Part shown: positions 6 to 49,500 of the stretch, one piece after another | How the letters are laid out: the number at the start of each line of letters is the position of its first letter | Numbering within the stretch: position 1 is the first letter of the stretch | DNA from: Nageia nagi | Lineage: Eukaryota > Plantae > Pinophyta | Length of the DNA: 64,000 bases | NCBI GenBank assembly: GCA_050084985.1 | Contig: JBITNC010000001.1 | Coordinates: 79,236,001-79,300,000, forward strand | Reading direction: 5' to 3' | The notes under the pieces: model-generated | The model's database searches: none | What the model was told of the DNA's origin: nothing | Seen by the model: the letters and a program-made list of their open reading frames with translations, nothing else | Made by a program: the position numbers and the translations under genes

Positions 6-712
6 GCGCATGCTCCAGGAAGACAAAATTTTGTCTTTCTAGAACATGCGCTTGGGAAGACGCCTAATTTGGAGTTCAAGTTCGAAAGAGCAAACTGGGT
101 CATTCCTGGACCCAACGCATGCTCCAGAAAGACAATTTTTTTGTCTTTTTGGGGCATGTGCCAGGAAGACACCCAGGACGAAGCAAAGGCCCGAAAAAGA
201 CAACTTAGTGCATTTCAAGGCTAGCACATGCCTCGAAAAGACAATCTTGTCTTTTGGGAGCATGCGCCAAGCCCAGGATGGCATCCAGTTGGGCTGAAAC
301 ATGAAATTTTGCTAAGGCATGGAGTCTCAAAGCTCATATCTCGCTCCAGCATGGCCAGAGGGGCTTGCCCATGCCTCAGAAAGACAAATTCTTGACTTTT
401 GGAAGCATGTGCCAAGCCTAGGAAGACACCGGGACGGGGTGAACTTGAAAATATGGCTAAGTCCCGGGAGGAGAAGACCAAAACGAAGCAAATCTGGCCA
501 CCTGCAACCCAACGCATGCCTCAGGAAGACAAAATTCTGACTTTCTGAACCATGCACCCAGACTAGAAGAGCCGAAGGGTTTGGAGCGCTTTTCAAAAAG
601 ACAAAATCTTGGCTTTTGAAATCATGTGCCAGGCTTGGAGGAGCCTCTAATGCATCCTCAGGTTGAGCGCATGATCTAGGAAGACAAAATCTTGTCTTTT
701 CTGGGCATGCGC
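6..712. repeat. Array of 7 imperfect ~45-bp palindromes (GCGCATG-n-AAGACAAAATTTTGTCTT-n-CATGCGC) with ~28-99-bp spacers
   Basis: Units at about 6-51, 116-161, 224-268, 367-412, 512-557, 586-630 and 667-712; the core AGACAAAATTTTGTCT of unit 1 is a perfect palindrome. Confidence 0.9.
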
Positions 713-926
713 CAACCCTAGAAGAGCCCTAGACCCCCACATCTAGTCTTCGACGGTCAAGCATGGAAGTTTGAGCGCAAACACATCTCGAGGTCGATCA
801 TGTGGACAGCCAAGATCAATTCCTCTCATGCCTAGCCAACTAGGGTTTCTTGGAAACCAAAATTTGCCTATAAACACCAACCTGGGGAGCTCATTTTCTC
901 AAACTTAGATTATCCTGCTCCTCATC

Positions 927-1361: not shown

Positions 1362-4149
1362 GTCGCCATAGGCGGACAAAGGTGCCATCAGCAAGCTAGC
1401 AATGGAGTCCTCAAGCTCGGTGTTGCAGAGACAAAGAAGATGGACCAACAGGAATAGACTAGAGAACCATCAAGGCGGGATGTTGCAAGTTCAACAATTA
1501 GCTTTTATATTATTTTGTTTATTTCAGTATTGTTTTAATTTTGGATTTCAAAACTTATTAAATTTTGTACAACCTTGTGACAAATGAGGATTTGCTCCCA
1601 CAAACGCTGGAATAAATCTTGTAATGCCATGTGGCATATTCTTATTTGACCGTTTTTTATTTTTCTTGAAACTCGTATTAGGGTTAAGGCAACACAATGG
1701 TTGCTCCAAAAACTATTTATACCCCATTTTGATTCATTTGTAAGGAGGATTGACACTTTTAACAATTGAAAAGAACTTTTGCTTGCTAGACCCAAATATT
1801 CTCCAAGTTGTTAAATGTAATGTATGTTAGTGCAATTGAAAAGATGTGCTTCTCATGTTGTAATGCCAAATTTGAATGAATGATTGACAGTGTTGTCTAG
1901 TTTGTTCTATCACTGAATTATGTTGATTTTAATCACTTGGTGCATCTTGTAAATCCTAATTGGGGTGGACAAGAGAATGCTTGTAGATTTTATAAAGTGA
2001 TTGATTAACATCTCGTTTGTGATATTTTGTCATTTGCAATCTTAGGCTTGGATACCTCAAGATGTCTTATTGATGTCGCTCATAGTAGAAACTTCACCCA
2101 GATCGTTGAATCTTGCCCTCATCACATCCTATTCCATCCTTGCCACAGCTTCACACTCCTTCCACTAGAACATTCGTGTTGTTAGCTAGTCGGACAAATC
2201 AAAGGTACGTGGAACCTACGTTGAGACCTAGCAAGTCGACTCTTGAGGACCTTATCCCAAACCCATGAGTACGCATGCCTACAGTTACATCTTACTACCC
2301 ACAATCTTTCCACCAATTTTTCTTTATTTTATTTTACACCTTTTTTCCCCGATTTTCGCACCCCCTATTTCCCTTTAGCATCTTTCAAAAACAACTTAGA
2401 CTGGCTACAAAGACGATCCGAGTCTTTGAATCCACACATGATATTCATGTTAGTGGCAACTTTAAACATCTCAACCATTCCCTGAGTTATCCTCATCGAG
2501 TCGTGAAGCTAACCTTTGGGGTAATCAGTCCCCATAGCGAGAGGGAGTAACTTCCTTTCACCTGAGGTGTTGGCACTTTTCTCACTACTCCAAGGTAGGA
2601 AAGAAAAACACCCCAACAGATGGACTAACATTCGTCAACATCCACTCATCAATATAATGGTGTCATGTTCAGAGGGTCCTTATTTACCTCGAGTTGTTGA
2701 CTGCTCGAGGGAAATGAATGATGCAGAGTTCCAGTTGACGAGGGTGGATGCTCCAATGTTGTCCAGGTAATCACTTTACTAAGTTTACTTTTAGTTTTCA
2801 AATTTATTTTTTGATGTGCAAATGCCAAATATTAATGTTTTAATTTTTTTATGTACAGATAATTACAGATGTAGCCCCCTGTTTGCAAGCGTGTAGAAAA
2901 ATTGATAGAGGGCACTTACATGCACATTTTTTGGACCCCATTTTGCGTTCATGCATTGAAGGACATTGGAAAAATAGATTGGGTGAAGAATGTGGTTGCA
3001 GAAGCAAGAGACTTGCGAATGTTTATTTGCAACCATCATACCTCATTGGCACTCTTTCGCTCCTTCTCAAAGAAGGAGTTTCTTAAACCTGCAAATACGA
3101 GATATGCCACTTATATTATCCTATTGCAAAGGATGATTGAGGTGAAGGAGGCACCACAATCCATGGTAGTTTGCGTAGAATGGAAGAGGTGGCCAGAATC
3201 TCAAACAGAGGAGGGAAAAAGATTTAGAGATAAAGTCTTAGATGAGAATTGGTGGGCTGAAGCCAAATAACAAAGTTTGAAAGTTTCACTATTGTAGTTT
3301 GAATTTCAAGTTGGATTGATCACTAGGTAATTGTTCAATTAGTTCTAAGATTTTTAACTTTTTTTATTGAATGTAGGTACATTGTATCTTTTATTTCCCC
3401 AGTTTTTGAAGTGATAAGGTATGCCGACACGGATTCTCCTAATTTAGGAGAGATATATGACACCTTCGATAGCATGCTTGGGGAAATGAAAAAAATAATT
3501 GATGCCAAAAATCCTTCTTTTTATGAATGTCATATTAGACCCATCATAGAGAAGAGGTAAAAAATGTTGATTGCTGACTTTAGTTTCAATTTGATTTGTT
3601 AACTTTAGTCTTTAAGTTTATTAAATTATTTTTTTAAAATTTTTTGTAGGTGGAATAAGATGAATACCCCTCTCCATATGGCTGCCCATGTGTTGAACCC
3701 AAAATGGTATGCACTAAAGATTTGGAAATGGCACCTAATGATGATATTGAGTTGAAAGATGGGATCATAAACTTCCTTGCCAAGATGTTTTCAAAAGAGG
3801 ATGGCCGTATAATTAGAGAGGAGTTTGTAAAATTTGTGAGACTTAAGGGTCCTCGTTTCAACAGGTTTCAACAAGCCACAGTGCAACGAGGATAGAGCTA
3901 CCATTGCCCAAACTGATCCCATTGGATAGTGGGATGTAGATGATGCTCCACACTTGAAGCATCTTGCAATTAGACTCCTTTCCCAGGTTAAAAGATGCCA
4001 TTGGCATGCCATTAAGTATTGTACTATTGTCTATTGATTATAAACTTATAATCTATTTTTCAATTTGAAATTTGAATGATTGTTTAAAATCTTAAATTTC
4101 TATTTCTCACATAATCAGAAATGAGAAATCTAATTTGAATGATTGTTAT

Positions 4150-7100
4150 ATTTAGGATATAACAAAAATATATTACTAGTCACTACTTTAACTATATTGC
4201 AATTTTATTTATTTATTTATTTATTTTTGTACAAAAATTGCAATATTTTTATATACTATTTATTGTTGAAACAAAAAAAAGGGGGGCTCTTATTTTTGTA
4301 CATACAGTATATTTAATCAAAAATAAAAATCAAATGAGGAGATTTTTTTGGGCGGCCAAAAAGATTGTTGAAAATATTTTTTAAATCAAAATTATATTTG
4401 TGGAGGCCCGCCGACCTACCCCATCTCCATGGCCATCAGCTCAGCCTAAAGGATCACTGCCAACCGTCTGAAAACGCACACCTAGACGTCTTAACCCGTG
4501 GACTGAACCTAGGCCCTTGACCGATTGAAACCGCAACCTCCTTGTCCTTGCTAGCTGTTCCTCTCCATCGTGTGACAGTTAGGGTTAGGTGGCATCAACA
4601 TAGCAGATCAGAAGTAGAGTCCAATCGGTTTCCAACCTATTCTCCCTGTCGCCAATCCGGATCCAGATGATTGACTGGTGGTCGATCCCAGCTTCCTATT
4701 CCTTCATAAGGGAGCGTTTGCTTATCCAGATATGCGTTTGCTTTATCCCAGCCTCCTTGTATATCGTTAATTGGGCGCTACCTCCTGGTACATGCGGGTC
4801 GAGTCTTAAACCCTGGTTGTGGCCTGTTAAAAGGACTCTAGTGGCCTGATCATAGCCTGGCATCAGCTCCTCCTTAGCATCGTCTAGTGGTAGCCTCTCT
4901 CCTGATGTGTGACGAAACTATGCCTATCCCTGCATGACTCCTCGCAGCCTCTTCTAGCACCTTAGACCACTCGCCAGGCTGTCTTGCAACAATTTCGCAA
5001 CCCTTCTGTCCTCCCTTCGCACAAGCTATCTCGCAGCTATCTCACGGATTTAAACTTTTTTTATTATTTTCGACCTTTTTTTCCGCTACTAGCTGCCCTC
5101 TCCTCCACCACAAACTTCCCACTCGCATGATTTTGTCCCTTCTCCGTTTTCACATCAACAAATTTAAAGGCATTTATCAAAAATGGCAGATACAGATAAA
5201 AAAAATTACTGTTGAAAGTTTGAAACAACATAATGCTTTCCCCCTTGTTCACATATTCTTCTTGCAAACTAGTTGTACTCTGTAGCGTATACCTATCCAT
5301 GGGCACCTGAATTAGGAGTCCGCATATGTTGCACGTAGCAAAGCATATCTCCACACTACTAAAAAAAATAGTTAAGGCCATGCCCATGCCTTGCCTTGCC
5401 TGGATCATCCCATACAACAATAAGATCTGTAGGATATGCCTATTCATCGCCAACTAATTTCTCACTTTACACAGCCTCTAATTTCTCCAACCTTTTTAAT
5501 GCAGAACCATTCAATTGTTTTACACGCTTTCTCATTAAATTTGAGAGGGGGGCCACCTTTGTTTTTAAATTTTTGCACCTATCAACATTAATTTCTTGCT
5601 AAGTACTCCAAATTTAATATAGCCATCATAATATTTGACTTGGAGTACTTAAATGCATTTTTAAACGCCTTACCTCTTCATTAATTTCTCTAAAATAATG
5701 ATGAGTTTACTTGTTGAATAAAAGTATGTACTCTTCATTAATTGTTTCTGACTACAGTACTTCTCATTATGTCTTTTTTTTTAACCATAAAGCATTTTTT
5801 ATGCACTTGCCAATTTTTTTTGAGTATGTTCTTAAGTAAGAATGAATTTTATTTTAAGTGATAAAAGGATCAAATTATTTTAAGTTAGAGGGGGAGATAT
5901 TTATGAATTTCTTTACTTAAAATCTCTAGATCCTTTATGATTAAAATACATATTTATCAATTATAAATTTTTATGATTTGCAAATAATGCATATTTATTG
6001 CTTAAAAATTTTAAATGCCTCTCTAAGTTAATGTTGCATACTTAGAACTTAATTTTTTAAGTTAATGGTAAATGCTTAGTACTTAACTTTAAATGATGCA
6101 TATTTAAGATTAGTACTTATGCTTATTACTTAAAAATTTTAAGTTAATAAATGCATGCTTAGTACTTAATTTTTAAGTTAATATTGCATGCTTAAGACTT
6201 TAAAAAAAAAATTTAAGTTAATGTTGCATGCTTAATTACTTAAGTTAAAAGATACACATTCAGTATTTATCCTTATGCAAAGCATGAAGTGGACTTGTGC
6301 AAATAAAGAAGGATGTAAAGATGTCCTTTAGGAGTTCGTAAACAAAACCCATTGGACTCTTAAGGTTCCAAGCAAGGAATGAATGATGTTTGTTTACTTA
6401 TGCTCTTTTACTTCATGTTTAACACTTCTGCTTTATTTACTTATGCAAAATCGCAAACATTGAAATGAGCAACCCTCTAAAATGAATACATCCGCATATA
6501 CATTCCGCAACATGAATTGTTTGGAGAGCCATGAGGTGAAGATAGGCGAATTGGAGCCTTTAAGTCCGACAATCCAAATGGTGAAAATTCCGTACTTCTT
6601 AATTGCCCTTAAGTCCTCTGTTGATCTGGATTTAACTCCAATAGGTGGACAGGTATTTGTGTAGTGATACCACATATCCGCACGTCCATTCAGGGATTAT
6701 CCTAATAACCTAGGAGGATAACTTGAAACCTAATCAAGATTAATAATTTGGCCGATCCAATAAACATCGGAACTTTAGAAAATAGCTAGTACTTCTCCTC
6801 GTGAGAGTATATTGCTACCCAATGGGAACTGGTTGAGAATTGGTAGTACTTGGGCTCCTCTTGTGTGGGCATCCAAGTGAAAGCCTAATTTTAGACAAGA
6901 AAACAAGCCTCAACAATGTCACTCTACATCTATGGTTCTTGAGATGAGAAATGTATTTGAGTACATGAGTTATTATTTGAATTGTAGAACATTTGCACTT
7001 GTGAATCAAATCAAGCATGTCTTTAGTGTTAAATGTAGCATGTATTATTTACTTGGTTAAAACTTAACATTTAATGTTTATTAAAACCACATGCTTATTA

Positions 7101-10100
7101 TTTCATATTCTTGTGTAGCAAATGGGAGAATCCTTTTTACCCAAATGCATTCTTGATGGTTCCAACTATGGGATTTGGGAACCTCGGATGAGAGCCGAAT
7201 TGCAAGCAAGGAAGCTTTGGCAAACAGTGAATGAGAACCTTGTACCGCTTACAGATGAGAAGGCACTAGAGGCTTACAACACAAAGAATGAATTGGCAAC
7301 CTCTATAATTTACCGTGCAGTTTCAGATGATGTGCTCCTGATGATTTCCTTTTCAACCTCAGCAAAGAAAACGTGAGATAAACTTAATCAAATCTACCTT
7401 TGTTCAAATTTTTCAAGAAGGTTTACCCTTCTCCAAAAGTTGCTTCAATCTCGTCAAGGGGAAGATGAAAATATGGCTATCTACTTAAACAAAATCATTA
7501 ACCTAAGGACCCAACTTGTTGCTTGTGGGTGCAACTGGATCAATAATGAGTTTATGGTCTTCATTATTCTTCAAAGCCTCTCTTCAAAGTTTAGAAACTT
7601 TGTAACAATTATGGAAACAAGGCTTGATGATGAAGAAGTCATCTCCCTTGAGAACTTGTCTAGGCACTTATTGAAGCATGAGGAAACCCTTAACAATAAG
7701 GTGTTGATTTCTTCTCCTAAGGATAATAACGTTGCCCTTGGTGCAACCAAATCTCCTTTCAAGAAGAAGTTCAATCATCAAAAGAAATCTTATCCTTCTT
7801 CTTCCAAAAGCTTTGAGAAAAGAGGTAATGGCTACAACAGCAACAAGAACAACAACCCTAGTAGTAGGAACAATGGTAACAACAATCATTTCAAGCAAAG
7901 AGATGGAAAAGGCAAAGTAAACACTCCTTATCTTAAGAAAACGTTTGATGGCAATTGTAACTATTATAGCATTCAAGGTCACAAAGAAGTTGATTGTTAC
8001 AAAAAGAAAAGAGAAAAAAAGTACAAAGGCAATAGAAATGTAAAGAACTACAAAGAAAAGAAAAATACTCATGCTAGTTTTGCTGCGGTGCTCTACTCCA
8101 TGTCTTGCTCTTTTTCATTTGAATGGATTGTTGAATCTGGTTACACTAATTGCCTATGCTTTGAAAAAGAAAAGTTTGAGAACTTTCACAAATATAAAAA
8201 GGATACGATTGTGATAGGTGATAACTCTTCCTTTGAAGTCCAAGGAATTGGGAGTGTGCTGATTCATGGAAAGGTTTTTCAAAATGTTCTCTGTGTTCCT
8301 AAGTTAAAGATGAACCTTCTCTCCATGATCCAAGTCGCTAAAAAGGGTACTCTTTTGAATTCAACTCTCAATCCTAGTGCATTAAGAAAAGACTTGCCAC
8401 TTTGGTTAAAGGATCTGTGAAAGATAACCTCTATATTGTGGATAAACTTCCATCAAAGATGTCTCTTGCTTCTAGTGTGTGTTCTAAAGGCAATCTTTGG
8501 CACCATCGTTTAGGGCACCTTAACAACAAGAGTATTCAAATCATGAAAAAACTAAGAACTTGTAGAAGGTTTGCCTTCAATTTCTCCTTCAGTTGGTTTA
8601 TGCGAGAAGTGCATTCTTGGCAAGATGCATAGACAAAAGTTTGAAAAAGATAAGGCAACAAGAGCATTTCAACCTCTTCAACTTGTGCATTCAAATTTGA
8701 TGGGTCCATTTCAAACTAAGTCGCTTGGAGAAGCATCTTAAATCTTGACTTTCATTGATGACTTTAGTAGGATGTAGATTATGAGAAAACCTTTGCTCCC
8801 ATGGCAAAGATGCCTACTGTAAGAGTTATCCTTGCTCTTTCTTCAGCTCAAGGATGGAAAGTTTTTCAACTTAACGTCAAGAGTGCATTTCTCAATGATG
8901 ACTTAAATGTGAAAATCTTCATGAATCAACCAGAAAGGTTTATTGTGAAAGGTAGAGTCCTTTGTGTTCAAGCTAAAGAAGTCATTGTATGGACTTAAGC
9001 AAGCACCTAAAGCCTGGTACAGAAAGCTTTCAGGGTACTTTGCAGACATTGATTTCTCCAAGTGTTTTTCTGACTTCGATCTATATGTGCTCAATCAAGG
9101 ACAAGACATGGTCTTGATACTCCTTTATGTGAATGATCTTTTGATTACTGGGAACAATGATGGAATCATTCAAGAGTGCATATCCAAACTTAAGGCAACA
9201 TTTGAAATGATTGATTTTGGTCTCTTGCACTATTATCTTGGAATGCAAATGTATCAATACAAAGATTGTACTTACCTCAATCAATCTAAGTATATATCAA
9301 ACATCTTGCAAAAGTTTGAAATGGAGTGTAGATATGCTACAATCCTGGTCTCTCCTGGAATCACTGTTTCTCTAAGCTCCAGCTTACATGCAATTAATTG
9401 GTAGTATTTTGTATTTGACTATATCCAGGCCAGATATTGCCTTTGCAGTGAATCTGATGGCATGATTCATGTAGAAACCTTATGTTGAGCACCTCAATGC
9501 TGTTAAGCAAATTTTAATGTATGTTGCAGGGAATAAGGATCTTGCTCTCAAGTATTCCAAGTTGCCCTCATTTGTTCTCTCTAGATTCTCAAATTCTAAC
9601 TATGGAGGAGATAGAGATGACAGGAAGTCAACCTCTACGTATGTGTTTAGCATTGGTTCAAGTGCTATCTCTTAGGCTTTCAAGAAGCAACCTACTGTTT
9701 CTCTTTCCACCACAGAAGCCGAATATCGTGCCATGTCTGTTGTTGCCCAGGAAACCATTTGGCTAAGGCACCTTCTGAAAGAAATTGGATATGAGCAAAG
9801 TGGCTCATCTTTGATCTCTTCAAAAAATCAAGTGGCCATTTCTTTGGCTAAGAATCCCGTGTTCCATCAGATAACAAAACATGTGAAAATCCATGCCCAT
9901 TTTATCAAAGAGAAGGTTCTTGATGGCATCATACACTTGGAGTATTGTCCATCTACCTTGAACTCCGCTGATTTGTTCACCAAGCCCCCTGAGAAGCTCA
10001 GTTCTGTAAGCTTAGGGATGCTATCGGGTTGGTGAAGTTGCCCTTAAGGGGGAGTGAAGTTTGAATTCGTGTTGAATTCATGTTTGTGATGACAATTTCA

Positions 10101-11362
10101 CCCCTAAGAGGATTTTATGTTGTATAGTGTTGATTTTGTTGTACACCTTCGTGGTAAGTTTGCTCTGCGTGAGGAACTTGTTGTACAAATTAGCCAATCT
10201 AGCACTGTTCAGTTATCCATGTGTGAGAAACTATTATGTGGTTTTTGGCACTGTTCAATTATCCATATGTGAGGAATTCGTATGTGCATGCTTTATTTTT
10301 GGTCATTCTAGCATTGTTCAGTTATCCATGTGTGAGGAACTCTTATGTGTCTTTTGGCACTGTTCAGTTATCCATATGTGAGGAACTCGTATGTGCTTGC
10401 TCTATTTTGTAATGATAATCAACACATGTTTTATATACAACAGGTGATTATGAGTTTTTGGCATGGCATCTTCGTGATGACTTATAGTGCACCATTAATC
10501 AGTTCATGATAGCATTTGTGTGATTCATCTATCCTTGTTGATATGAATATGATGCATCTAACTGATCTTGTTATTTGAGTTGTTTATGACTTGCAAGTTC
10601 CTTTGAAATTGCAGGTTACTTACCTCAGGTATGCAAGCTCTTGGAGACTCTTCATGACTTTCAGTTGGATGACTACTTCATGTACATTGAAACCAGTTGT
10701 GGTTAATGATTGTATTTGGCAACGTAGTGAGTCTCAAACTAAATCTTTCTTATTTCACAAATATGTAAAAGTTCTCATCTCCGTTGTATCTGTTTGGAGA
10801 ACTCTCTTACTTTCTATTCTTCTTCTCTCTTACTCACTCTATCCCAATATTGCATTAAGAGAGAGTTGGAATGTATAATGCATTATTCTAAAGATTTGTA
10901 TTAAATCTTCTATGTAAATTCACTAATTCTTAAGGGTATCATTTGATACCTTAAGTATTTAAGTGAATATGATAATGTAACTTGTCCTACACTCCATGTC
11001 CTGAGCATGCCCCTTGGGTAAAAGGATGTGCATGTCATGCTTTTGTACATTGGATAAAATGGTGATCCAAAGAGAGATTTTGGCCTATAAATAGAAGGCT
11101 GTCTTTGTGATTACACACCAATTTGTAAAGTTATGCTATAGCATAGAAGTGTAGGAGTTCAGATTAGGCGGATTGTAAGAGAGTTGTATTTGTGATTGAA
11201 GTAAAGATATAGTTAGTGGATGTACTCTTAGTTGGAGGAACCACTTTACATCTTGAGTTACTTTGTGAGATTGTCTTGTTTGTGAGATTGTTAGATGTGT
11301 ATTGTGAGTTTTCATATTATCTTGGTTGATTAGGAATTATCTTGTTAGTGTTAGTTCCTTCA
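4150..11362 (+). mobile_element. Degenerate Ty1/Copia LTR retrotransposon with a long 5' leader; 5' LTR not found; integrase core to RT N-terminus deleted
   Basis: gag from 7122 (LDGSNYGIWEPRM, decayed zinc knuckle CNYYSIQGHKEVDC), protease WIVESG, LWHHRLGH, VHSNLMGP..FIDDFSR joined directly to DYEKTFAP at about 8775, RT LKKSLYGLKQAP/LYVNDLL, RNase H KHVKIHAHFIKE, PPT AAGGGGGAG at about 10046-10054. The left boundary is approximate. Confidence 0.9.
10055..11362 (+). repeat. Copia 3' LTR (~1.3 kb)
   Basis: Starts TGAAG right after the PPT and ends CTTCA (inverted termini). CCTATAAATAG at about 11083. Four copies of GCACTGTTCAGTTATCCATGTGTGAGGAACT at 10201-10390. Confidence 0.8.
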
Positions 11363-25500: not shown

Positions 25501-28500
25501 ATTAACACAATCCCTCAACCTACTAACCCTCCACCCTTGATGCTACACCAAGAGGACAAGCTTGACGTTGTGCCAAGACTCCAAGATCAAAAATCAAATA
25601 AGCCAAAAATGCCTTCCAATCAATCATATCATCACTGAACACACATACCTAACTCAAGGAGGGAGACATCCCAATTTGGGGCTCACAATTGGTCCTTTGG
25701 ACCCACAAGTATCCTACCTTGAGATTACATTATGCCTAAGGATACATGCAAATAATAATTAAATACTCCTAACTATCAAATCACTTCTAAATTATATTAT
25801 CTCAAATGGGCCCCGCATGGCATCCAATGTAAGAAAAAGAAAAAATGATAAATTGGAAACATTACAATGTGGGGTAGAGAGGCTTGAACAAGGTCACAAG
25901 AGTAATATCAATGTTCACACCCGTAGAGTTTAAGTCATGCATAATTGCTCTAATCTCTAAAATCAACGCCATGGAATGATTGTCTTTCAACTCTACATTT
26001 AAGGGCTTCAATTGTAATTAGATTAATTCCAATTCAAAATGAGATTCATACAAATCTTTCAACTTTCTCAATGCATTCCAGGCGTCATCAATTGAGTTAG
26101 TGTGGCAATGAACCTCTTCACTCACCGAAGCAGCAATCAAAGCATATGCTTTCATATTTTTGTATTTCCAAAGTGCAAGCTCCTTTGCATTTGTCAGTTT
26201 GGTGGGGGGAGTATCTCCATCACAAATACACTCCCAAAAATCATTGAAAATGAGAGTATGTTTGATCTTTCTAAACCACTTTGGATAGTTTTCTTTCCCA
26301 ATCAATACCACAACAACAATACTCACACGGGAATGCATATTTGCAAATCTTCAAAACTCAAATGTTTCTTTACAAGATTTTATTATCAACACTTCTTTAC
26401 CTAATAAAAATGTCTTTACAAACATCATGAAAAATCAAATTGTTCTCAATTTGTAGTCTTCAAAATTTTGGATCAAACAAAAAAAATTTGTCCAAATTGA
26501 ACCTATATAATGCAATTTATCGCCAAAAATGTCTTTGGAATTTCAAAATTTTAAAAAAAGGCTCAAATTCTTCAAATTCTAAGCATGTCAAATTTTTAAA
26601 TTCATTTGAAGTGGGTTGATTGATTAAAAGAGCAATTGAAAGAGGTGGCTGGTGTGGGTCAAGTGCAATCCACATCAAGGTTGAAGTAAGGTGTCTATGG
26701 GCTCTTCGCATCCACATCAGGCAACATAGGCTATATTTGTAATACACCCCTCTGCAATAATTCAAGAGGGATGTATTTGGAAAACAACTAACAAACGAGT
26801 TTTATTTCATTCATGGAGTTAACAGTTCTAACATGTAAATCCTCTGGTCACTATTCAAGATCCTCGAAAACAATTTCAAGAATAATAGGATCCTCTAAAC
26901 TTTTGAAGGATGCTCCTGATCTGTGATCCATTCAAAAGGTGAATCAATGGCATCAAGATCAATGGCCTCATAATCTATATCTACAATTTTTTTATGGTAG
27001 AGTAGTAGATTGTAATGCACAAACACAAAAGTCATTTAATTTTCTTGTGTCAATTTGTTTTTCTTGGAATAAAATGTGATAAAAATACTCCAATTATACT
27101 CACAACCAGAAGCGTTGCATGGCTGAGATAAAATAAGGATTGCAAAGTTATGCAAGATGGGGTATATGACCCAAAATTCTCCCTCTATAAATATGGAAAA
27201 ATTCAATAAAAAGAGAATTAATACATCACTAGTTCACATGTAAAAATTGAAATTGAAATTAAAAGAAAAAAACTTTAAAGTTTTAATGAAGTTGTACCAT
27301 AGCTCCTAGTAATTGCTCAATGTCCAGCTTATGAAAGATATAGGATGTTTCTCTTGATTATTATATTTTTATGTAAATCATCTTTCTGTGTAAGCACGAT
27401 AGTTATGCTCTCTTCAACACCATGGACATACAATATGAAATCTTTTGCATATAATCCAAGTTGACCAATAATAGAGCTTGATCAATTGACTCTTTGATCT
27501 TCTCAAAAGCTTCTTTCCATTTTGTTGTCCAGACGAATGGTACACCTTTTTTGAGAAGCTTGGTCATTGATTTTTCAATATGAGAAAAATTAGAGATAAA
27601 CTTCCTCACAATATTGATCTTCCCGAAGATTGAAGTGTTTTCTTATTTGAAGGAAGGTGTAATGCTAATATAGCTTTTACTTTGTTTGAATCAACAAAAT
27701 AGCCAACCTTTAAGATGACCTAATAATTTCCCTTCAAGAAAACAAACATTGATTTTTCAAAACAAAGGTAATTCTAGCCTCCTAACATCTATGAAATACC
27801 AAACTTGGATGATTTAGATGCTAATTTTTATCATGAGAAGAAATTGTCATATCATCTTGGTATATGATAATGATTTTATTTACCGATTCCCTAAAGGTGA
27901 AGTCCTCTTTGAAATGTAACTTCAATGATTTGACAATCCAAACAACATCCTTTGGTATGCAAATGTTCTCCACTTGGTGGTAAATGTTGTCTTATGTTGA
28001 ATTCATCTTTCACCTAGACTTGGTTGTATCTAAAGAAACCATCTAGCAATGAGAATCTTTTAGCTCCAGAAACCATTTGTAAGATCAAATGAGATATTAG
28101 TCTTTCAAAGTAGCTATGTTCAAATTATGAAAGTTTAAACATAACTAGATTTCTCGTTTCTTCAACTGGACCAAAACTGAATTGGCCACCCATGTCAAAT
28201 GTTTTTTTTTATTTATGAGAGGTGTCAGCCGAAGCCACTAATCCTCTCGGAGTCGTGATCCTACCCACTAATCACGCGACTCAAGGTAAATTGTGCGATC
28301 TTTGCCTAGGTGGGACTTTTTACATGAGGGTTTTTATCCGAGCCCCACAAACCGATCACAATACAACCGAAATGCGTCCAAACTGCAGCCACGTAGTACC
28401 ACCAGGGATTCATCAAGGGGATTCGAACTTGTGACCACCTCCCGCCAATTTGATTCACTTTGCCACCATAGTCATTCCAAGCAACAGAAAGCAAATTTGG

Positions 28501-31500
28501 CTAAGTACGGAACAAATCTTAACTCGATGCAAGTCCGAAAGAAGACAAACCTCTTGTTTCATTCCGGATGTGAGCTCGACCCAGGCATGCTTCCTTAGCA
28601 CAAGTGTGGCCTAAGACACCCCTCATGACTCACCTCAGACTTGTGTCAACTTCATAGGGGTTCTAGAAGATGATTTTGAGCAATAATGATGAAATTCAAC
28701 TAATAATGATGAAATTCAACTAAGTATAGAACATGTCTTCCTTAGGCGCATGTCTAGACAGAGACAACCTTCATGACTCTCGAAGGATGTGCGTCGAGCT
28801 CAAGAGCACATCTCAAGCACATACGCAAGGCAAGACACCAATGTTGTCCCCCCCTTGGACTTGCGTTGGGCATCTCTAGCCAGTATCTAGGCGTAGATGG
28901 ACATCAAGATATACCTCATGACCCTTGTGTTGGGGGCTTTTTCATTCCTACCCCTACAAGTTGACAAGTGGTATTGCAAGGCTTAGTGGAAAGACTCCAA
29001 AACCTGAGGGGTAGGGCGTTACCCCTACTCGCTATGAGGACTATTTACCTCAAAGGTTAGAAAGTGAAGGGTGCATGGGCTCACTCAGGTGGTTTGGTGG
29101 AGATGTTTTAAGCTATTACCAACTCAAAATAGATTTGTTACTCAAGGACTCGAAAGGTGTCTCTAATCCAGTGAGGTTGTTTCTCAAAGAAAATAGAAAA
29201 TTAAAGGAGTTCATTGCGAAAGCCGCGCAAAAAATAGAAAAATAAAGAAAATGTTTGTGAAGAGACGATGATATGTGAATGGGGCTCTAGGGCAATGTTC
29301 TCACCGACTAGTGTGAATTTCAGAGACTGGACTCGCACAGGTTTGATCTAGGTTCCCTGCATTCCCGATCCGGCTTGTGAGGCAACAATACGAATACCTC
29401 AACAAGGGAAGTTTGAAGTTGAAGTGGTGGAAAGGAGAGATAGGATGGGGTAAGACTCAAACATGGAATGAAGTTCCTAGGTTAAACGACATATGCGAGT
29501 TCTCTCATAAGGCACTAATCCAATGTGCAAACTATAGAATATTAAACCAGATACACCACTTAAAAGTGTTTCAAAATATCTACAAGCATTCTTTTGTCCA
29601 CCTTATAGAAGATTTACAAAATGATCCAAACACTTAAGATAGCATGGGGAAATAACATACAATAACATCCATAGTCTCAAATAAGAACATGCTCATTTCA
29701 ATTACTTGAGATTTATATCATAATTGCGAAAAAGGGAAACTTGCAAGATTGGAAAAATAGTGTAAGTAGCCCAATTTTCCACAAAATGTCTAATCCCTTT
29801 CAAATGAGCTCAAATAAGCTATATATAGTTTTGGAGCAACCCTAAGTGTTTCCCTAACCATAATTGCAATTTACAAGAAAATAAAACATGGTCCAATACA
29901 AATATGCCACATGGCATTACAAGATGTCTTCCAAGTTTGTGGGAGCAAATCCTCATCCATCACAAACTTGGGAATTTATTAACAAATAAATAAAAATCTC
30001 TAAAAATAATTATGAAATCTATTTAATAAAAGACAACAAAAATTGTGACTAGGCGGTTGGTGGGCCCAACGCCTCTACGCGCCCTTCAAAGTCATCGTCC
30101 AAGAACTTGGCTGTGAGCTCCGATCCATGTACCATCTCCAATAGCTTTGGCTGGTTCATGACCATGTAGCGATCCACCTTATCCACAATCCTCATCATAT
30201 CTCTCTCCCATGCATGAGCTTTGAGTAAATGCTCCAAGTGACTACCAGTCTGAAAGGTATTAATATCTTCAATCATAATCAGACTATAAAAGAAGTGCAT
30301 CACTTCTGCCACCACCAGGTCTTTGTCTCGGATACCTATGTCATCATCGAGGAACTTCACCTGGAACTCCATTTGCTCAAGACAAGTGTTTGCCTTGTCA
30401 TTGAGCTTCCAAACATCCTTCTGCACCTCTTGGAACCGAGTGGTTATTTGAATAACAAGGCCTAGATGAAACCAATATTCTTCATAGAATTTCACATCCT
30501 CTGGTTTCCAATTCCGTGTTGTCTCGAACTGCATGATCATGGTTCGTCTAGAATCCAAGATCATGAGGAAGCCGGTTCTCTCCACAATGATATCCTTGAG
30601 CTTTTGCTCTTCTAGTGCTACCCTCTCTAGTGTTCCAATGAACTGCTGAACTGCTACCAAGACCTCATCTATGTGCTTTTGTTTCACTGCAATCATACCC
30701 TCCTTGAGCGGCTTGATCTTCCGAAGCTCTTCTGTGGGTACCTTAGCTGTTTCCAACTCTCTTGTCAGCTTCTTTTGTGTGGCTAACTCCTTCCTAAGGC
30801 TCTTAATCTCCTTGTCTTTCATCATACCATCTTTGGTGATGGCCTCAGCGTTGGAGACGATTGCATGCTTCTGACCAACCAAACCAATTGGCCCTATGTT
30901 AATGATCTGGTTAATCTGTCTGAGATCTTCTGGACGTTGTGGATTCTCCTTATCAGCTATAATGGTCTTGATGTGTATGGCATTATTGGCCAAGTGTACA
31001 TACGTTTGGGATTTTCCTAGACGAGTGGAGGAGCTTTCTCCTACTTGGTCATTCTTTTCCCCTACTCCAAATTCCTCCTCAACGTCCAAATTGAACACAT
31101 CGAGACAATCCTCCATGTTAACACCCCACTCATCCGTGGGTGGTGGTTGATAAGTTTCCACAACAGCCTCCTGAATAGTAGCAACATTCTTCTTCATTCT
31201 CTTCGAGGGTCTCTCCTCTCCTTGATCAGTCTCATCATTTTCCCCTGAGGTGACTATAGCTCGTGATTGTGGGGTTCTCTTGAGTCTAATCCTATTCTGC
31301 ACGATCTCAGATACTAGCTCCCTACCTTTTCCTGCAGATGGCTCTGACAATGTTGTCTTATGGACTTGTGCCAATATCTCTACGGATTCATCTTGTTCTT
31401 GTGCGTCTAGAATCTCCTCATTCTGGGCTACATTCTGCTCTTGCTCATCTTCTGACACTCCAATCTCCCCCTCCTCCTGGTTTTCATCCAGCCTGTAAGA

Positions 31501-34500
31501 GGGACTGGAAGCTGACGATCCAGATGGTGGAACAACAGGTGATGACACTAATGTGTTGGTTCTAGGTGGTCTAGGTGGTGGCGTAGGATCTTGACGTCTA
31601 TTTCTCACACACCTTACTACCTTATCAGTATCCACGCGCTCTAGCTCCCTTACATCATGTTCGTCAATGGTGGCTTGTATTTGTTGCATAACTTGCTCAA
31701 CTGGGTTCTTGCCACGCATAGACACATACTGCCTGACAGGTATCTCATTGACTGGAGGGAACTGCGTGATCCTAGAAGTGGACTCTTGAGGTTTCCTTCC
31801 CTTGTTCTATGAGAGTCTCTTGCTAATTGTGGCTTCCACACGGTGCTGCTCATTGATCGCGTCCCTGAGCACCCTTTCTCTTATTCTCTTGATCTCTACC
31901 TCATTGCTAATGTTCCGGAAAGGCTCCTCATTTGCAAGTGGCTTATGTTCATAGGACTTCTTCCTTTCCTTTGTGAAGAACAAGTGTATCCTATGATCCA
32001 GATCATAGTGGTCGACAGCAGGCATCATCCTGAATTTAAATTTGGCCAACTCTTGGTCCATGGTTTCCACATCCGACCAAAATTTACACTGATATTCTCC
32101 CATAGCAATAGGCAGATTTGAAGTAGCTGATTTCTTCTGCCACACCTGTTCATGCAGGAAGGGCAACTGCCTCATCATCTCCATTAACAGAATTCTGTTA
32201 CTTACAAACCTTGGCAATTGATAGGGCTGAACGGTTGATCCATGTATGCGAATATAGGAGAAGTGTTGGTGATGGAGGAAGAAGTCGCAATGCTCTTCAA
32301 AGCATCTTGAGCAGAATTGGAGATTCATGCAACTATGATTTCTCCCTTAAGCTCCTTGAATATCTCATACTCCCATCCATCATTTTTCATCATAAAACTT
32401 TCCCACCTTTTGTTTAACTTCCATTTGGGGTAGCATTTCCAAATGGAGTAAGTCCCTTTCTCAATCAAAGTCGTCTCACCCTTCGTTGTAGCCCTATATT
32501 TGCCATGAAGCAACATGTACATCAGGTATGAGTTGAGGTAAAATTTGCAAGTTGTACCAATGGATGACAATTGATCGGTTATCAAGTCACTCAACACCTT
32601 GCTCCATCTGATTCTCCTTCCTCTAGCAATCTCAAGAATGAACCCAAAGAACTCCTTCCTGAACTTCGAAGCATCTTCTTTCCCGAGCTCTAGATAGTAT
32701 AAGAACCATCACCTCGACTGCTGGGTAAAAGTTGGCGCGAGGAGCATTGATGAGCGCATTCCCCTTCAAACCATGATTTTCATCGTACATCCAACTCTTA
32801 ATAGCAACGCCTGCCCTGGGGGTCTCTTGGTAACAAGCTAATGACCTAACCTCGTTATACTCAACTTCTCCTTTAGAGGTCCACTGGAATGCTACATTGA
32901 TGGCTTCAAGGCGAAAGTCCATAATGATATCCCCCTTAACGTCTCGAAGGATTCTCTCCCCCTTCTGCCAGTGGTGGCTAACCTCCATGCACAATTCCGA
33001 AAATGGAGCCATGAATGGGACTAATGTACAAGTGGAGAGTCCAAAGAAGAAGACGATGTCCTGCTTCAAGTTAGTGATTGGAAGACAATGAGTGTTCTCC
33101 CTCATTTGTGTAGGGTCAACATTTTGCCAATTCATATCTCCGATAGTGGCAAAAACCATTCCTCGAGAATCTAGCACCTTAACAAAGGGCTTGTTGTCTC
33201 TCACGAATAGAGATGATGCAATCCTGTTTCAGCTACTCGAGGTCCCTAGCAAAGTCAGGAGCTGAATTGCCTTTGGAGGAAGTCATGGTGTTTTCAACCG
33301 CAACGAGGCTCTCCAAGAATGTTGCGTGAGTTTCCAAGTGAAAATGACCCTCGTGTTAAAGTGGCTAGCTTCCCAAATGCTTGCACAAGCCCTAGAGTGT
33401 ACAAGTGATGATGTTTGAGCATGAAAATCTGTAATTTGCTGCTATCTTGGCACAAGGGTAGAAGAGGAGCAATTTTTGAATTTGAGAAAATGAGGTCCCC
33501 AAGCCTGTATTTATAACCCATATGGCTTCCATATTGCCCTAGTTGACTAGGGTTTCTATTAAACCTCATCATGAACCTCCATCTGGCCGACCTAAAGATG
33601 TGTGCCGACCCAAAAACTCATGCAAAGCCTCTTATGCCCACACATTGGGGTCCAAAAGGCCATCGTAGCTTGGTGCATGAAAAAAAAAAGACAAAAAAGT
33701 GACTTTTTAAACCATGCACCAGCCCTAGGAGTGAATGTGCTTCCAACGTTGGGTCTCCTACCTATGCACTCGCTTGCTTTGATCACCCAACTCACCCATT
33801 AACCTGATTTTTCCTGATTTTAGATCTTCTGGTCGGCTGGACTTAGTGATTTTGATGCTGCGTTCGAAATTGGGCAACCTATTGGCTTGGTGCATGTTTC
33901 CAAAAGTCAAGATAGTGACCTTTTGAGGCATGCGCCAGCATTGCCTACCCGTTCAGCTTGGTCGCGGCCTATTTTCCGAAATTTGATCTTTGAATGCTCA
34001 TGCCTTAGCCAAATTTTCATGTTCTTCAGATTTTGGAGTCTTCCTGGGCTTAGCACATGCCTCAAAAAGTCAAGAATTTGTCTTTTGAGATCATGTGCTA
34101 GCCCCCCAGGTATGCTTGAGTTGGTCTTGAGTTTCTCAAGTCTATGACTTGTCAAATTTTCATTTTGGGTCGAGCCTCCTGGATGACTTAGGCTCAAATT
34201 CCGAACTTCAAACATGCTTGATTTGTCCTCCTGGCCAAATCGCATGGTTCAAAAAGACAAGATTTTGTCTTTTCAAAGTATGCACCACCCTCCTAGTGTC
34301 TTTGCCTTAGAATTTTTACGCCTTCATCTGGTCCAGTATGCTTCCTGTATCTGGCACATGCTCAGGAAAGTCAAAATTGTCTCCTGGAGGCATGCGCTAG
34401 GCTTGTAAGTGCCCAAACTTCATCTTCAAACCTTCCTTCTTGCCTGGACGACCCCTTGGCCAAGTCACATGGTTCAAAAAGATAAGATTTTGTCTTTCTA

Positions 34501-37500
34501 AAGCATGCGCCAACCCTTTGGAATGCCCAATTTGACTTGATCAGCTTCCAGCTCGACTTAGACTAACTAATTCACCTAAATTCGACTTTTACCCTTTTCA
34601 AACTTAGCCATTTTAAGGATTTTTCAATTTCTATTTTATCATGACTAACTCTAATGAAGGGAGAGGCTATGAACTATGAGGAGTAATCCATGAATCTGGG
34701 TCTCGACGATCCAACTTGGGTAGGCCGAGATGACGATAAAATGAAGTATATACAATAGTGTGTTTGAGGGTCCCCAAAATCGTAGGATTTTGGGGCATGT
34801 TGTATTTTAATCACAACACCTTGGAGGACTTGCACCAAGCCAGTATGTACATTTCTAACACAAGTGCACACCAAGACAGAGATGGCAACCTTTCTCAGAT
34901 GTGCGCCATCCTTCCAAGAGAGTCAAGGGAATATCCCGAGCAACTAAGGACGAAATTGGCTAAGTGTAGAGCATCCTCCCTTCGGACGCAAGTCAATAAG
35001 AAGAAAACCACCATGACCACCTGCACATCTGTGCTAGATTCACATACCTCATTACTAACACAAATGCAATAGGAGACAACATGCTTGTCTACCCCCATAC
35101 ATGTGTTGGCTCTGTCTCTCCTCATCTACGCACAAATTCGGACCAAGAAACCCCTTTTGACTCCCAGAACACTTGCGTCAACCTCCCAAGTGCCAACCAA
35201 CCTCAAGTTGCATGCCAAAATGTTTAGAAAACCGCACACATCCTTAGGCACTTGAAGGTGTTGCCCTAGAAAAAACCCAGAGATATCTACAAAAGGGGGC
35301 AAACCAATCTTCTTTTCTGCACGCCAAAATTGCTCTCTCCTCATGAACTCACCTGGGCCTTGAAGCTGAGACCCCTTGAAACCCTTCTAAAACAAGTCAA
35401 GGAGCTTCTCCCCCCCATTCCTTGAGACACTTGAGACACCACTCCACATCCAATGTCCAATGGTAGAGATGAGTTCTAAGACACAGGGCGAAGAGATCAA
35501 GTTGAAGGGGGCATTGACCATTGACGAGGTCCCACCAAAGATAAAGCTCACCTTTGATCTCGCAGCTTCAATGAGGATACTACATGAGGATCCCAACCAG
35601 AAGGTGAAAGACGATTCCACGGAGACTCACCATGTGCGCAGGTTTTTCTTCAAGGTTAATAGCACATTGTTGACGACTAGAGTCTTCCTGAACAAGGCCC
35701 CAAAGAAATCTCAAGACATAAAGACTCAGACATTGAAGACTGGAATCGGTGAGGTCAAGGCCACTGGGGCAAAGCAGAATAGAGACATCACCAAGCTAGC
35801 CAAGGAACTAGAGGAGAGCCAGAGGAGGACAGGGTCTGAAGAGGAGATCATACTCCATAAGCCACGTCGTCCCATGGATGGAGAAGGAACAACTAATGGA
35901 CTCATGAATGCAAGTTGATGGAAATCGTTGCATCCTGCATGCAACATTTTTTATTTTATTTTTACATAATTCAGTATTTCGAACCTCAAATTTTATAAAT
36001 TTTGTTAAAGCCTAGTGACGGATAAGGATTTGCTCCCACGAGTGCTGGACTTAGTCTAGTGGTGCCACGTGGCTCATTTTTTATTGGACCATCGGTATTT
36101 TAATAATTTTATATTAGTTAGGGTTAGGGCAACACTTAGGGTTGCCTTGCAAAACAATAAATAGCCCTCATTTGTTAGGAAGGAAATTTTCAAAATGGAA
36201 CTTTGAACATTTTGCAACTAGATGAGTAGAGTAATTATTTCTATCGTATACTTGTCTTTTGTGAATGTGATATGATCTTTGAAATGAAAATCACAAAACT
36301 CCATTTCTTTGGTATTATGAACTTGGACATGTGATGTTAGTCATTGATATGTGTTGCTTGAGATACTTGGGACATTTCACAAACTCCTCAAGGAGTGGGT
36401 AAAGGGGTAGTTGAATATCCTTTTAAAGTATTGAATGTGATGCATGATCGATGATTGTTCATAGTATGCAACTAGACTCGTATAACTCTAAAAGTGTACT
36501 CCTTTATGATGTTTAGCGCGTGAATTCACCCACATATTGAAAGTGCAATCCTTGTCCCCTAGACACATGCTCCCTTTTGCAGTTCATTCGTGTTGGTGGC
36601 TACCGCAAGTGGATGTGTCCTTCTTCTAGACCCTTCGTGTAGTCTAGATGGAATGAAAGGACTTGTGGGTGTGTGAAACTCAAAAGAAACTTTGAAGAAC
36701 TTGGCCTTTTAGACATTGTATTCGTCGATGGAGCCTGATGCAAAAAGCAAAACTCATGTGCCTCTAGCCATCTTGTATTCCTTCATAATTACATTCTAAA
36801 ATTGGGGTAATTCTATTATTTTTTCATTCTCTATTCTTTATTCTTTAATCCTCGAGAGTTGTATACATAAGAATGCCTGGGAGGGATATTATTCTCTTAG
36901 AGTCTCAATGAGTTGTAAAATTTTGTATTCTTTCATTTTTATGAATCCCTCTTCTTCTCATTTAGTCTCAGGACTCATGTATATAATACTACCCAGGAGT
37001 CATATTGTTTTCTTAGTACCCGAGAATTATATGAATAAGGATACCCGAGAGTTACATCGAATAGGAGCTATGTCATTTTTTATTCTTTTATTCTTTAGGA
37101 CCCAGAAGTCGAGAGTACCCGGGAGTTATGTCATTTTCTTCAGAGTACCCAGGAAGAATTGTCAAAAATACCCAAGTCATGTATACAAGACTATCCGAGA
37201 GTTATATTTATTGCCTTAAGACCTCCGAGAATTGTTGACACAAGTGTTCGAGACTTGCACAAATTCAGAGCCAGATTTTTAAAGAACATCAACAAAGCCC
37301 GACGATTTTGAGACATGACATCACATTTTTTGGTGAAAATCAATGGGTCCCGACGGAATCAAAACATCAACAGAGCCCGACGATTTTGAGTGATGTCACA
37401 TTTTTTTGATGAAAATCAGCGGGTCCTGGAGGAGCCAGAATATCAATAGTGCCCACCGATTCTGAGAGATGACGTCATGATTTTCAGCTAAAATCAACAG

Positions 37501-46500: not shown

Positions 46501-49500
46501 AGAGATAAGATGTAAAGATAGTATAACCCATTTTATTGTACAGAATTTCAAGTTGGATAAAGTGGGAACTGCATGGATGTATGACCCATCAGGGGAGATG
46601 ACCCAAATAATAAGGACTAGCAAAAACCATCCAGCATTTGCCCATGACAGTAGGCCCCATATAGAATATTTTGTAAATAAAATTGAGCAGGAGGCAGAAA
46701 TGTACCCAGATTGGGAATTTGTACCCCTCAATAAGGCCTAGGGAAGAAATAAGGAAATATAGAAATTGGGAAAATAAGAGGCAAGATTTTGTCCTCAACC
46801 TAGAGGTCCTCACCCAATTAGCATATCTTGGGTGGGGTACCAATAAAATTCATTATTTTACAAGATTCAAATTTGAGTATACCACAAAAATTCACCATAT
46901 TGAGAGTGAATTATTTGACAAATTCAAATATGATAAGTACTGAAAGGCTGAGTATTCCAAGGATCCTCTCTTGGAGTTGAGACAGCCTCTTCCTCCACAT
47001 TTTCGCTGGAAACTTGCTACAAAGGCAAGAACAGTACAAACAAGAGAACCATCTGGCATGGTTCAAACTCCAAAGAAGGGAGAACAAAACCTTTCGAACA
47101 CCACCACCTCTTCCTAGGAACCTTCTCCCAAAAAGAAAAGAAAAGTTCAAACTCTTACTCAAAGGCAACAAATATTGGAGGAGCAAAAGCCTGTAAAAAA
47201 GCCCCGGTCTACTACAGCAAGGTCACAGTCACAAACGATTGTACCTTCGCCTTCAGAGGCAATAGAAGAAGTCCCAAAGGTGGTAATAAAAGAAACAGAA
47301 ATTTTTGACACTGAAGAGTTTAAAGAGCCACAAGATACAAATGTTGGTGCTGCAGAACAAGCGCAGGAACAAGAACAAACAGAAACCTCAGAAGAGGGAC
47401 AGAGCCAAATTCCACAAAGCAAGGGAGATGTACCTGAAGCCAGTGGATTAGCAGCAGCTGCACTCGGAGGAGGACCGGGAAATGGTGATGATGACGATAA
47501 ATCCAAGAAAAAGGACTCTGGCCCAATGGATAAGCTTGAAGAACAAGGTGAGGCCATGGAAGAAACCAAGCCTGAACCAGAAGTCCAACAGTTGACACCT
47601 CCACGATAGTCCCAACCAATTCAACAAATTGAGACACCTATTATAGGTGGAATTATTTCTACCCATTCTTTTATTCCTATAGCCTCGCAAGAGGAAATAA
47701 AGTCAATTTTTTCTACACAAATTGTAAAGCCCATTGATTGGGCAACCTTTGTTAATAAATCTCTTGTGCTCCCTGAGCAACAGTCAAGAAAGGGGGGAAG
47801 TTGTATAAATAGCTAGCTTTTAAAAATCAAAAAAGGTCAGACATTTTAGCAAATTTGTCCAAATCTGTAAGAACTATTCACATATGATAATACAAACAAA
47901 CAATGCTTTGCTCTCTTGTACCAAAGTGGTTGTTATTGCTTTTGTGAATGTTATGTGTGAAATGTTTTCTTCAAATTGTGGCTATGTATTGTGATTGCGA
48001 GACCCCAAGTGCAAGATAGTTTACTATTCTTAATCTTGGCTATGGATTGTTGCCTGTGCTGCAATGCCCAGATTGTAAATTTCTTGTTTTAGATGTTTAT
48101 TTACTTATCTCTTTCCTGTAACTCTTCATCCTTTTATTCCTTTCCTATTACTTTTGACCTTAAATATAGATAGGAACCGGCCTATAAACCGGAGATTGAG
48201 CAGAAAACCAACAGAAGTGCATCCCCACCACTTTTTGCTCTTTCAAGGAACCTACCGTTGCGGGCAATGGAAAACACGACCAAACCAAACCCTTGAGGTT
48301 ACGCTATATCGATCAACACATCTCAATCTCCCCTCTCATTTTTTTTTTTATTTTACACTTTTTTCTGCGGCTTTCGCACCCCCAATTTTATTTACCTTGT
48401 TTGAGAAACAAACCTTGTCCAGATACAACAACAATCCGAGTCCTTCATTAACAAATTTTATTTGAGGTTGATGTCAACTTCAAACATCCTAACCAGTCTC
48501 CTGAGTCAATTCTTGCACACCCATTTCACAAGACCTTTGAGGTAGTTAGTCCTCATAACGGGTAGGGGTAATGCCCTTCCACCTAGGTGTTGGTTCCTTT
48601 CCCAAGCCTTGCAAACCAATTTGCCTATTCGCAGGGTAGGAAAGAAAAACGGCCCAACATCTTCAATCCTGGTTTGAATGCTCACTTACAAGATCTTGTT
48701 TGTACTTGGAACAAATCTTAGCTTGAAGATTATTCAGGAAAAAAATCACAATCTGGGTCAGTGTTCATCCCCACCAAACCTTTTCCTTTAGCAACTTTCT
48801 TAGTTGCAGCTAGTTGACATTGATGTTGATAGAACAAACAAGTAGGCACCAGTATTCTTCTTGAGGATTAGATGTTCCAACTTCTGGCCCTCCAGCCATA
48901 GCATTTGTTCTTCCAACAGCATTGCTTGTCGAAGCTCCTTGATCATTGGTTACATATGCTAGCCTCTTTTGTTGGTAGCCTTCAAATCTTCTTTCTAAAT
49001 TCTGTCTTTCCACATAAGTGATCTTATTTGCTAAATTCTTGATCATATCTTTCTACTCTTGCATGTTAATGGATTCCTATGCCTGCCTGGCAACATCTAT
49101 TGTTTTGATCTTTGTCTTTGTCGATTATTTTAGGAAGTTGATGCCATTCTTCTCGATGAGAACTCCAATGTTGAAGCTTGCATGTAGAAGGCTTATCTTC
49201 ACTTTACAGTGCTGAATTTATTTGAGAAATATGTAATCATTGAATGCACTTGTCAGCTTAACTTCAGGTTCGGCATCTCTGATCTTTACTTTATCTCTCT
49301 TAAGGTTGAAATTCAGAGATAGCTAGCTGTATGATGACATCATTCTATTCAAGTTCAGCCTGTTGAGGAAGGAGCTTAATACCAGACTGGAACTGTTGAG
49401 GAGGCTAGCTGACATCATTGTTTATGTTCCAGATATGTAAAGAATAAAGAATATAAGCCCGGAATTGCTTCCTTAGGCTTAATCTCAAATAATGAAAAAT

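Follow-up and report, generated by a model that had tools for sequence, protein, structure and literature searches.

The window (the whole 64,000-nucleotide stretch of DNA that was analysed) carries ordered arrays of a 46-bp dyad-symmetric unit, each placed ahead of a TATA box and an open reading frame (ORF). Whatever binds them, the units are very probably protein sites on DNA, and the array may well be an enhancer or operator of double-stranded protein sites that is read by the host and drives a cargo gene embedded in an LTR. The carrier itself is likely a solo LTR of great length that comes from a plant retrotransposon and encloses the whole gene. That the entire cassette lies within an LTR-like, TSD-flanked unit was absent from the initial annotation of this DNA. 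Three things come together in one cassette: a defined site of 46 bp, a rule of fixed spacing and a small protein domain that the cargo types share.

A half-site profile placed seven units in the first array (6-51, 115-161, 224-267, 367-412, 512-557, 584-629 and 667-712) and six in that of element A (33673-33719, which is weak with a score of 25, 33890-33935, 34053-34098, 34240-34285, 34354-34397 and 34465-34510). Together with the dyad scan, this confirms the seven units at 6-712 and six near 33670-34510 that had been reported initially, while the degraded units, at about 28746-28870 and 34865-34910, can be made out by eye but score below the profile threshold. The same profile gave one match in ten shuffled 64-kb windows, and an unbiased dyad scan found six positions with at least 17 of 21 paired bases, belonging to two units, against 0.45 expected. 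An exact pattern scan of JGI contigs returned ten loci, nine of the same family and one chance match; viral contigs held no match to the unit pattern. L009, a duplicate of L006, was excluded, as was the chance match L010, a single unit that scores 16 and has no match to the family. Column statistics are based on 72 of 83 units, in 13 arrays (the 11 left out, L010 included, score below 30), picked with a profile built from the window units, which favours conservation. The public loci (L004-L007 etc.) may derive from other species than the window.

The unit, first described as about 45 bp long and dyad-symmetric, is indeed a dyad, of 46 bp (21+4+21): GCGCATG-N5-AAAAGWCAW, four nucleotides and the mirror. 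Its centre measures 4 nt in 59 of the 72 units and is mostly AATC or AATT. Half-site columns 4-7, 14-17 and 19-20 hold 1.3-1.9 bits and columns 8-12 hold 0.25-0.96, with two conserved blocks per half-site, GCGCATG and AAAAGWCA; A/T runs recur about every 10 bp within each unit. Among 144 half-sites, GCGCATG is found 54 times, GCACATG 18 times and GTGCATG 15 times, and columns 2-3 read CG in 83, TG in 25 and CA in 25. Since the TG and CA counts are equal, TGCATG and CACATG are best seen as CpG methylation decay products of GCGCATG in which the GCATG core is kept, and not as the RY or E-box consensus proposed earlier. The CpG observed/expected ratio of the arrays (0.35-0.58) is like that found elsewhere in the element, and the CpG of the half-site decays on either strand; by this proxy, the arrays bear no trace of lasting hypomethylation.

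The array is real and apparently under selection. In orthologous blocks from eight elements, the units are 83% and 71% identical compared with 58% for the spacer; decay of units at the pace of the spacers, which would have counted against the proposal in the initial annotation, is not seen. The spacers are homologous and length-conserved between copies instead of unique as claimed. Indeed, one spacer is common to both elements, as had been noticed (298-461 aligns with 34166-34004 at 74% identity, E 3e-19), and three length classes, 25-26, 67-69 and 98-99 nt, account for 44 of the 69 spacers. The corresponding periods of 72, 114 and 145 bp approximate 7, 11 and 14 helical turns at ~10.35 bp, and periods of 83, 93 and 124 bp are also present. 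The array is thus ordered but not evenly spaced, with successive periods of 110, 108, 144, 145, 72 and 83 bp in element 1 and of 112, 113, 187, 163 and 217 bp in element A. Gap openings per 100 nt amount to 0.83 in the 99-nt spacers (58% identity; chosen by length) and 4.4 in the right-hand region (66%), that is, five times fewer gaps although the spacers are less identical. A tandem-repeat origin without selection was rejected, as spacers diverge while their lengths hold. The left end lies 285-308 bp from the first unit in all nine copies, and the distance from the last unit to the TATA box downstream is 155-159 nt in six ORF-bearing copies and 167 nt in a seventh, which bears out the position of the array upstream of a promoter and a cargo ORF. 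Arrays hold 5-12 units. Phase tests over 10.2-10.6 bp gave p 0.024 for the seven classes up to 150 bp, p 0.089 for all 17 classes and p 0.001 for six recurrent classes, although two of these classes are sums. Because the classes of spacer length go back to one shared ancestral array and amount to few independent events, the tests make helical phasing of the units suggestive.

Sites for a dimeric protein and RNA hairpins had both been proposed for the units. The conserved blocks, the fixed geometry and the lack of strand bias lend indirect support to the former. Hairpins would act in packaging, export or as small-RNA substrates, as proposed for Sirevirus LTR palindromes, at which siRNA hotspots are found (PMC4728375), and every unit does fold, with a mean of -17.9 kcal/mol. 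Nevertheless, G-U and A-C mismatches between arms are equal in number (120 vs 117), N6 columns are paired 219 times vs 230 expected, and arms match their own partner no better than another arm of the same array (1110 vs 1111, p 0.58). Moreover, the antisense strand folds slightly better than the sense strand, which is lower in only 29 of 72 units, and spacing in helical multiples would be meaningless for single-stranded RNA. Given equal G-U and A-C, no excess of own-partner pairing and no folding advantage of the sense strand, the unit is better described as a symmetric DNA site than as a selected RNA stem. The hairpin was rejected as the main role, and we regard it as very improbable. As to compensatory changes between arms, suggested earlier as a test, the two arms change together from one subfamily to another (GACAA to GTCAT; GCGCATGC to TCGCATGA; global shuffle p 0.0004), but single units show no such covariation, and arm-to-arm copying could partly explain the similarity of the arms. 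DNA architecture without a specific binder, with phased A/T tracts bending DNA or positioning nucleosomes, would account for the ~10-bp recurrence of A/T runs and for periods near helical multiples, 145 bp being one nucleosome core and 72 half of it. However, CATG, G17 and CA19-20 are conserved like the A tract and bending alone needs none of them, so that we give this explanation very little weight.

The carrier units are 3-6 kb long, with TGTTG...CAACA ends and the array near one of them. Element A (5891 bp, TGTTGTG...CCCAACA) sits inside the degraded array of element C with CCTTG on both sides (Table 1). All three complete copies show 5-bp TSDs, matching at 5/5 positions in A and at 4/5 in both L004 (copy at 9191-12256) and L006. 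TGTTGTG is found at seven of nine left ends and CCAACA at six of six right ends, the full TGTTGTG...CCCAACA pair being present in A and L004, and the terminal repeats measure only 5-7 bp. The right end presumably resembles Tat U5 ends. The ends fit the LTR integrase signal TGTTRNR...YNYAACA (PMC3601003), and a 5-bp TSD is given as the rule for plant LTR elements (PMC6317226). All nine left ends carry two terminal inverted repeats, TGTTGTG-N6/7-CACAACA and CCCCAAAATY-N4-RATTTTGGGG, and these terminal hairpins would be a better candidate for RNA or single-stranded DNA structure than the array. A C-G to T-A double change occurs in the second hairpin (10-bp stem, free 4-nt loop) in L004 (3019) and L005. 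The order within the element is: two terminal inverted repeats, array, TATA 1, ORF, AT-rich tract, second promoter-like block, ~870 bp and end.

Table 1 Features of the carrier elements in the window.
Feature	Position	Strand	Basis or remark
Element 1 dyad array, 7 units	6..712	+	Dyad scan, profile
TATA box 1 + initiator-like CTCATTT, 155 nt past last unit	869..900	+	Consensus match only
Short cargo ORF, 140 aa	939..1361	+	Codon-position conservation with 35460-35918 and L004
Second promoter-like block (GATGAGGATTTGCTCCCAC, GCCATGTGG, ATTGG, TAGGGTT, TATTTATA, TCATTTG)	1583..1745	+	Putative LTR promoter
Element 1 right end (...CCCCAACA)	2590..2618	+	Left end precedes window
Element A, complete, probable solo LTR	28928..34818	-	Ends + TSD CCTTG
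Element A terminal inverted repeats	34772..34818	-	Kept in 9/9 left ends
Element A array, 6 units	33673..34510	-	Profile
TATA box 1 + CTCATTT of element A	33490..33515	-	Consensus match
Long cargo ORF, about 1080 codons	30049..33286	-	Four open stretches (frameshifts + a stop)
Element A second promoter-like block	29795..29960	-	Conservation
Element C degraded units, left of A insertion	28474..28870	+	By eye, under profile threshold
Element C degraded units, right of A insertion	34824..35110	+	By eye, under profile threshold
Element C short cargo ORF	35460..35918	+	Coding-type divergence
Element C right-hand end, split off by gypsy element B	48324..48659	+	Sequence match

The second promoter-like block is kept in seven of seven copies with 53-88% overall identity, TAGGGTT, TATTTATA and TCATTTG being its common motifs. 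Since its TATA reads equally well on the opposite strand, we can only infer the orientation of the element. L006 and L007 have lost TATA 1 and, apart from its last codons, the long ORF but keep the array and the second block. Their deletion junction is the same although they are no more than 86% identical to each other, so the deleted form has probably gone on spreading. No inner direct repeat, RT, integrase or transposase was found in the copies examined, and a PBS or internal gag-pol region adjoins none of 15 element boundaries (nine left, six right). Since no internal gag-pol was found, the carrier is a probable LTR only. Two left flanks are purine-rich, without internal sequence after them. 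Loose ends at the left terminus have nothing in common beyond CACAACA in four runs (33, 17, 12 and 18 contigs), while contigs on the right terminus show a depth step in one of four runs, which might be a shared junction. The family is abundant, 2313-7493 contigs per run matching one copy.

The long cargo ORF comprises an N-terminal helical region, an acidic linker, a small domain shared with the short ORFs and a long coiled coil, and its relatives are 47-58% identical. Protein searches with the cargo returned unnamed fragments only (3, 0, 20 and 92 matches), PDB sequence searches nothing relevant, and a Pfam search no match to DUF1985/DUF287, known DNA-binding families, Transposase_28 or Athila ORF1. 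Assignment to the plant mobile domain (PF10536) was rejected, with one of 22 members matching at E 0.023, under the curated cut-off, and an N-terminal model (pLDDT 46) that had no fold match. The C-terminal model is a generic coiled coil (pLDDT 85) and starts past the shared domain, which is therefore without a model. An HMM built on a region that was chosen by eye ranks the short ORFs directly behind the true members among 1555 six-frame ORFs, and shuffles scored as high in 0, 0 and 4 of 2000 cases; profile-profile comparison of short and long ORFs is weak (E 0.061). By these comparisons, the short ORF is a remote homolog of the ~100-aa stretch just ahead of the long ORF coiled coil. Its third codon positions are the most diverged (0.48-0.62 vs 0.60-0.75). 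Minimal coding copies, as read from the sequence, keep one small uncharacterised domain and the start of the coiled coil, and this piece would be the obvious candidate binder should the array be recognised by a protein of the element itself. Homodimer prediction for the shared domain gave 0.29 vs a mark of 0.32. A more distant long-ORF relative in L005 (4045-6406, 21% identity) has a similar right end, suggesting that the family has old sister lineages.

In the reading we prefer, the carrier would be an LTR with an accessory gene taken up into its U3, which now holds the array, TATA and ORF in that order, while the second block would be the LTR's own promoter. Because this block would start the genomic RNA, the ORF could be deleted while the unit still spreads. 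The palindromes would be putative docking sites for a two-fold symmetric protein complex whose binding turns the cargo gene on. Units kept in helical register would place the bound proteins on one face of the DNA, where they could act together, and the array perhaps also enhances the LTR promoter. Host transcription factors are somewhat more probable binders than the element's own cargo protein; we take GCATG to be a B3-type and AAAG a Dof-type host factor motif.

Self-regulation, in which the cargo protein would dimerise via the shared domain and coiled coil, bind the dyads and activate or de-silence in trans, is rather unlikely. It would work like VANC, the analogy offered in the initial annotation, or like Spm TnpA or retroviral Tat/Tas and would agree with the conservation of the ~100-aa domain in both ORF types, next to a confidently modelled coiled coil, with the codon-position pattern of the short ORFs, and with the long arrays (11 and 9 units) retained in ORF-less copies, as expected of targets in trans. 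However, the cargo contains neither DUF1985/DUF287 nor a known DNA-binding family, the CpG depletion of the arrays is ordinary, and the motif is unchanged while the domain diverged to the edge of detection, whereas VANC motifs change with the protein (PMC5735166). The circuit in its full form, with an operator array in the LTR that is helically phased and occupied by a dimer of a new protein domain encoded by the element itself, is likewise unlikely. We consider it improbable that the carrier is a stand-alone mobile element of the integrase type with TG...CA ends, the array being a subterminal site for a transposition protein supplied from elsewhere. The absence of an internal region at the 15 boundaries, the TSDs on all complete copies, the internally deleted copies and the CACAACA-only loose ends would all suit such an element, but the array lies at one end only, the terminal repeats are minute and no copy holds a transposase or integrase. 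Furthermore, solo-to-intact LTR ratios of 2.8 in Cupressus (bioRxiv 10.64898/2026.07.23.736688) and of up to 10.5 per chromosome for a rice family with a 3.2-kb LTR (PMC3485330) make a run of solo LTRs plausible, so that the boundaries are not decisive. Both self-binding and a stand-alone carrier are compatible with the units being DNA sites.

The closest known system is, by analogy, the LTR palindrome arrays of Sirevirus (Ty1/copia) elements, with 7.3 palindromes of 17 bp per LTR (Bousios et al. 2016, PMC4728375). As far as the available text of that study goes, both systems place several palindromes (5-12 here) ahead of a TATA in the upstream part of the LTR, with arms more conserved than the centre; here, in contrast, the unit has 46 bp and four blocks and shows no sequence match, the spacing follows fixed helical multiples, and the TATA past the array serves a gene inside the unit. 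Membership was rejected, as the consensus is unrelated to the CACCGGAC(N)GTCCGGTG-type motif in Ty1/copia LTRs. Ty3/gypsy elements of the Athila, Tat, Ogre and Retand groups have extra ORFs in the internal region (PMC6317226, PMC11963269, PMC7264820). The accessible parts of these sources describe an accessory ORF that is likewise large, uncharacterised and served by a promoter of its own (Grande gene23), and nearby repeat arrays, and the weak plant-mobile-domain match here is a further likeness, but the present gene lies in a TSD-flanked LTR-like unit. Rice Retrosat2, RIRE3 and RIRE8 likewise combine LTRs above 3 kb, many solo LTRs and an extra ORF0 of unknown function; in the available text it lies upstream of gag-pol, and no ORF inside the LTR is reported (PMC3485330). 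VANDAL elements, which are Mutator-like DNA transposons, resemble this family in encoding an accessory protein beside non-coding arrays of a repeated motif, but the VANC motifs described are 8-9 bp, non-palindromic and tandem, and neither DUF1985/DUF287 nor a protein-linked motif change is seen here (Hosaka et al. 2017, PMC5735166); TE-encoded regulators in general may offer a functional parallel (bioRxiv 10.64898/2026.08.24.746577). VANC/VANDAL membership was rejected: no cargo piece has DUF1985/DUF287, there is no transposase and the TSD is 5 bp. Among retroviruses, MMTV sag and HIV nef lie inside or overlap U3 and are expressed from spliced or upstream-initiated RNAs; they are alike in being protein-coding genes within an LTR, but here the gene comes with an array and a TATA of its own inside one unit. 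In the literature covered, with subscription papers, repeat libraries and supplements outside the scope, there is no report of the motif, the layout or a plant LTR with an embedded gene, and the available text of PMC13468544 has nothing on LTR cargo. The family may already stand in repeat libraries or supplements.

For the accessory ORFs and repeat arrays of plant retrotransposons, the accessible parts of two sources give no demonstrated function (PMC7264820, PMC11963269). Because the cassette has natural long, short and ORF-less variants as controls, the choice between host factor and own protein is directly testable. If the gene does lie in the LTR, solo-LTR formation, usually read as removal, would leave a working gene with its enhancer. 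If the self-regulating circuit were true, each solo LTR would persist as a cassette of promoter and gene that could activate or de-silence related copies in trans, with array-only copies as its targets. Should the carrier have no gag-pol partner, it would represent a mobile element of a new, stand-alone kind.

As a whole, the window consists of plant DNA rich in TEs, among them copia and gypsy fragments. In gypsy element B (36775-48318, TSD CATCT), gag, protease, RT and integrase are arranged as in Ty3, and the stretch between protease and RT, which has no Pfam match, we take to be an archaeal-type RNase H. An RNase H at this place marks TatI/TatII of club-mosses and gymnosperms (PMC6317226), which makes a gymnosperm the likely host. 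The extra ORF of element B at ~45250-47610 is unrelated to the cargo by tblastn, and its left part (36775-38100) has no match to the 3' LTR and contains 77-bp repeats at 37285-37504. Element C is flanked on the left by a decayed RT-RH stretch (27367-28204, minus strand) and on the right by a stretch that looks gag-like by eye (48660-49100, minus strand), the intervening part being missing; its left end near 28222 is uncertain, without a matching TSD. Besides A in element C, an insertion into a relative's array is seen in L004 (2097, in array 2195-2722), and the left end in L005 lies 31 bp from the end of a distant relative. Arrays may attract insertion, which is not significant with nine left ends. 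Two exon-like ORFs on the minus strand (12983-13582 and 19151-19594), with no Pfam or PDB match, presumably resemble plant Mediator subunit 16, and the repeats may lie in long introns of such a gene. Directly past element 1, decayed hAT-type transposase fragments (DUF659) occupy 2620-4000.
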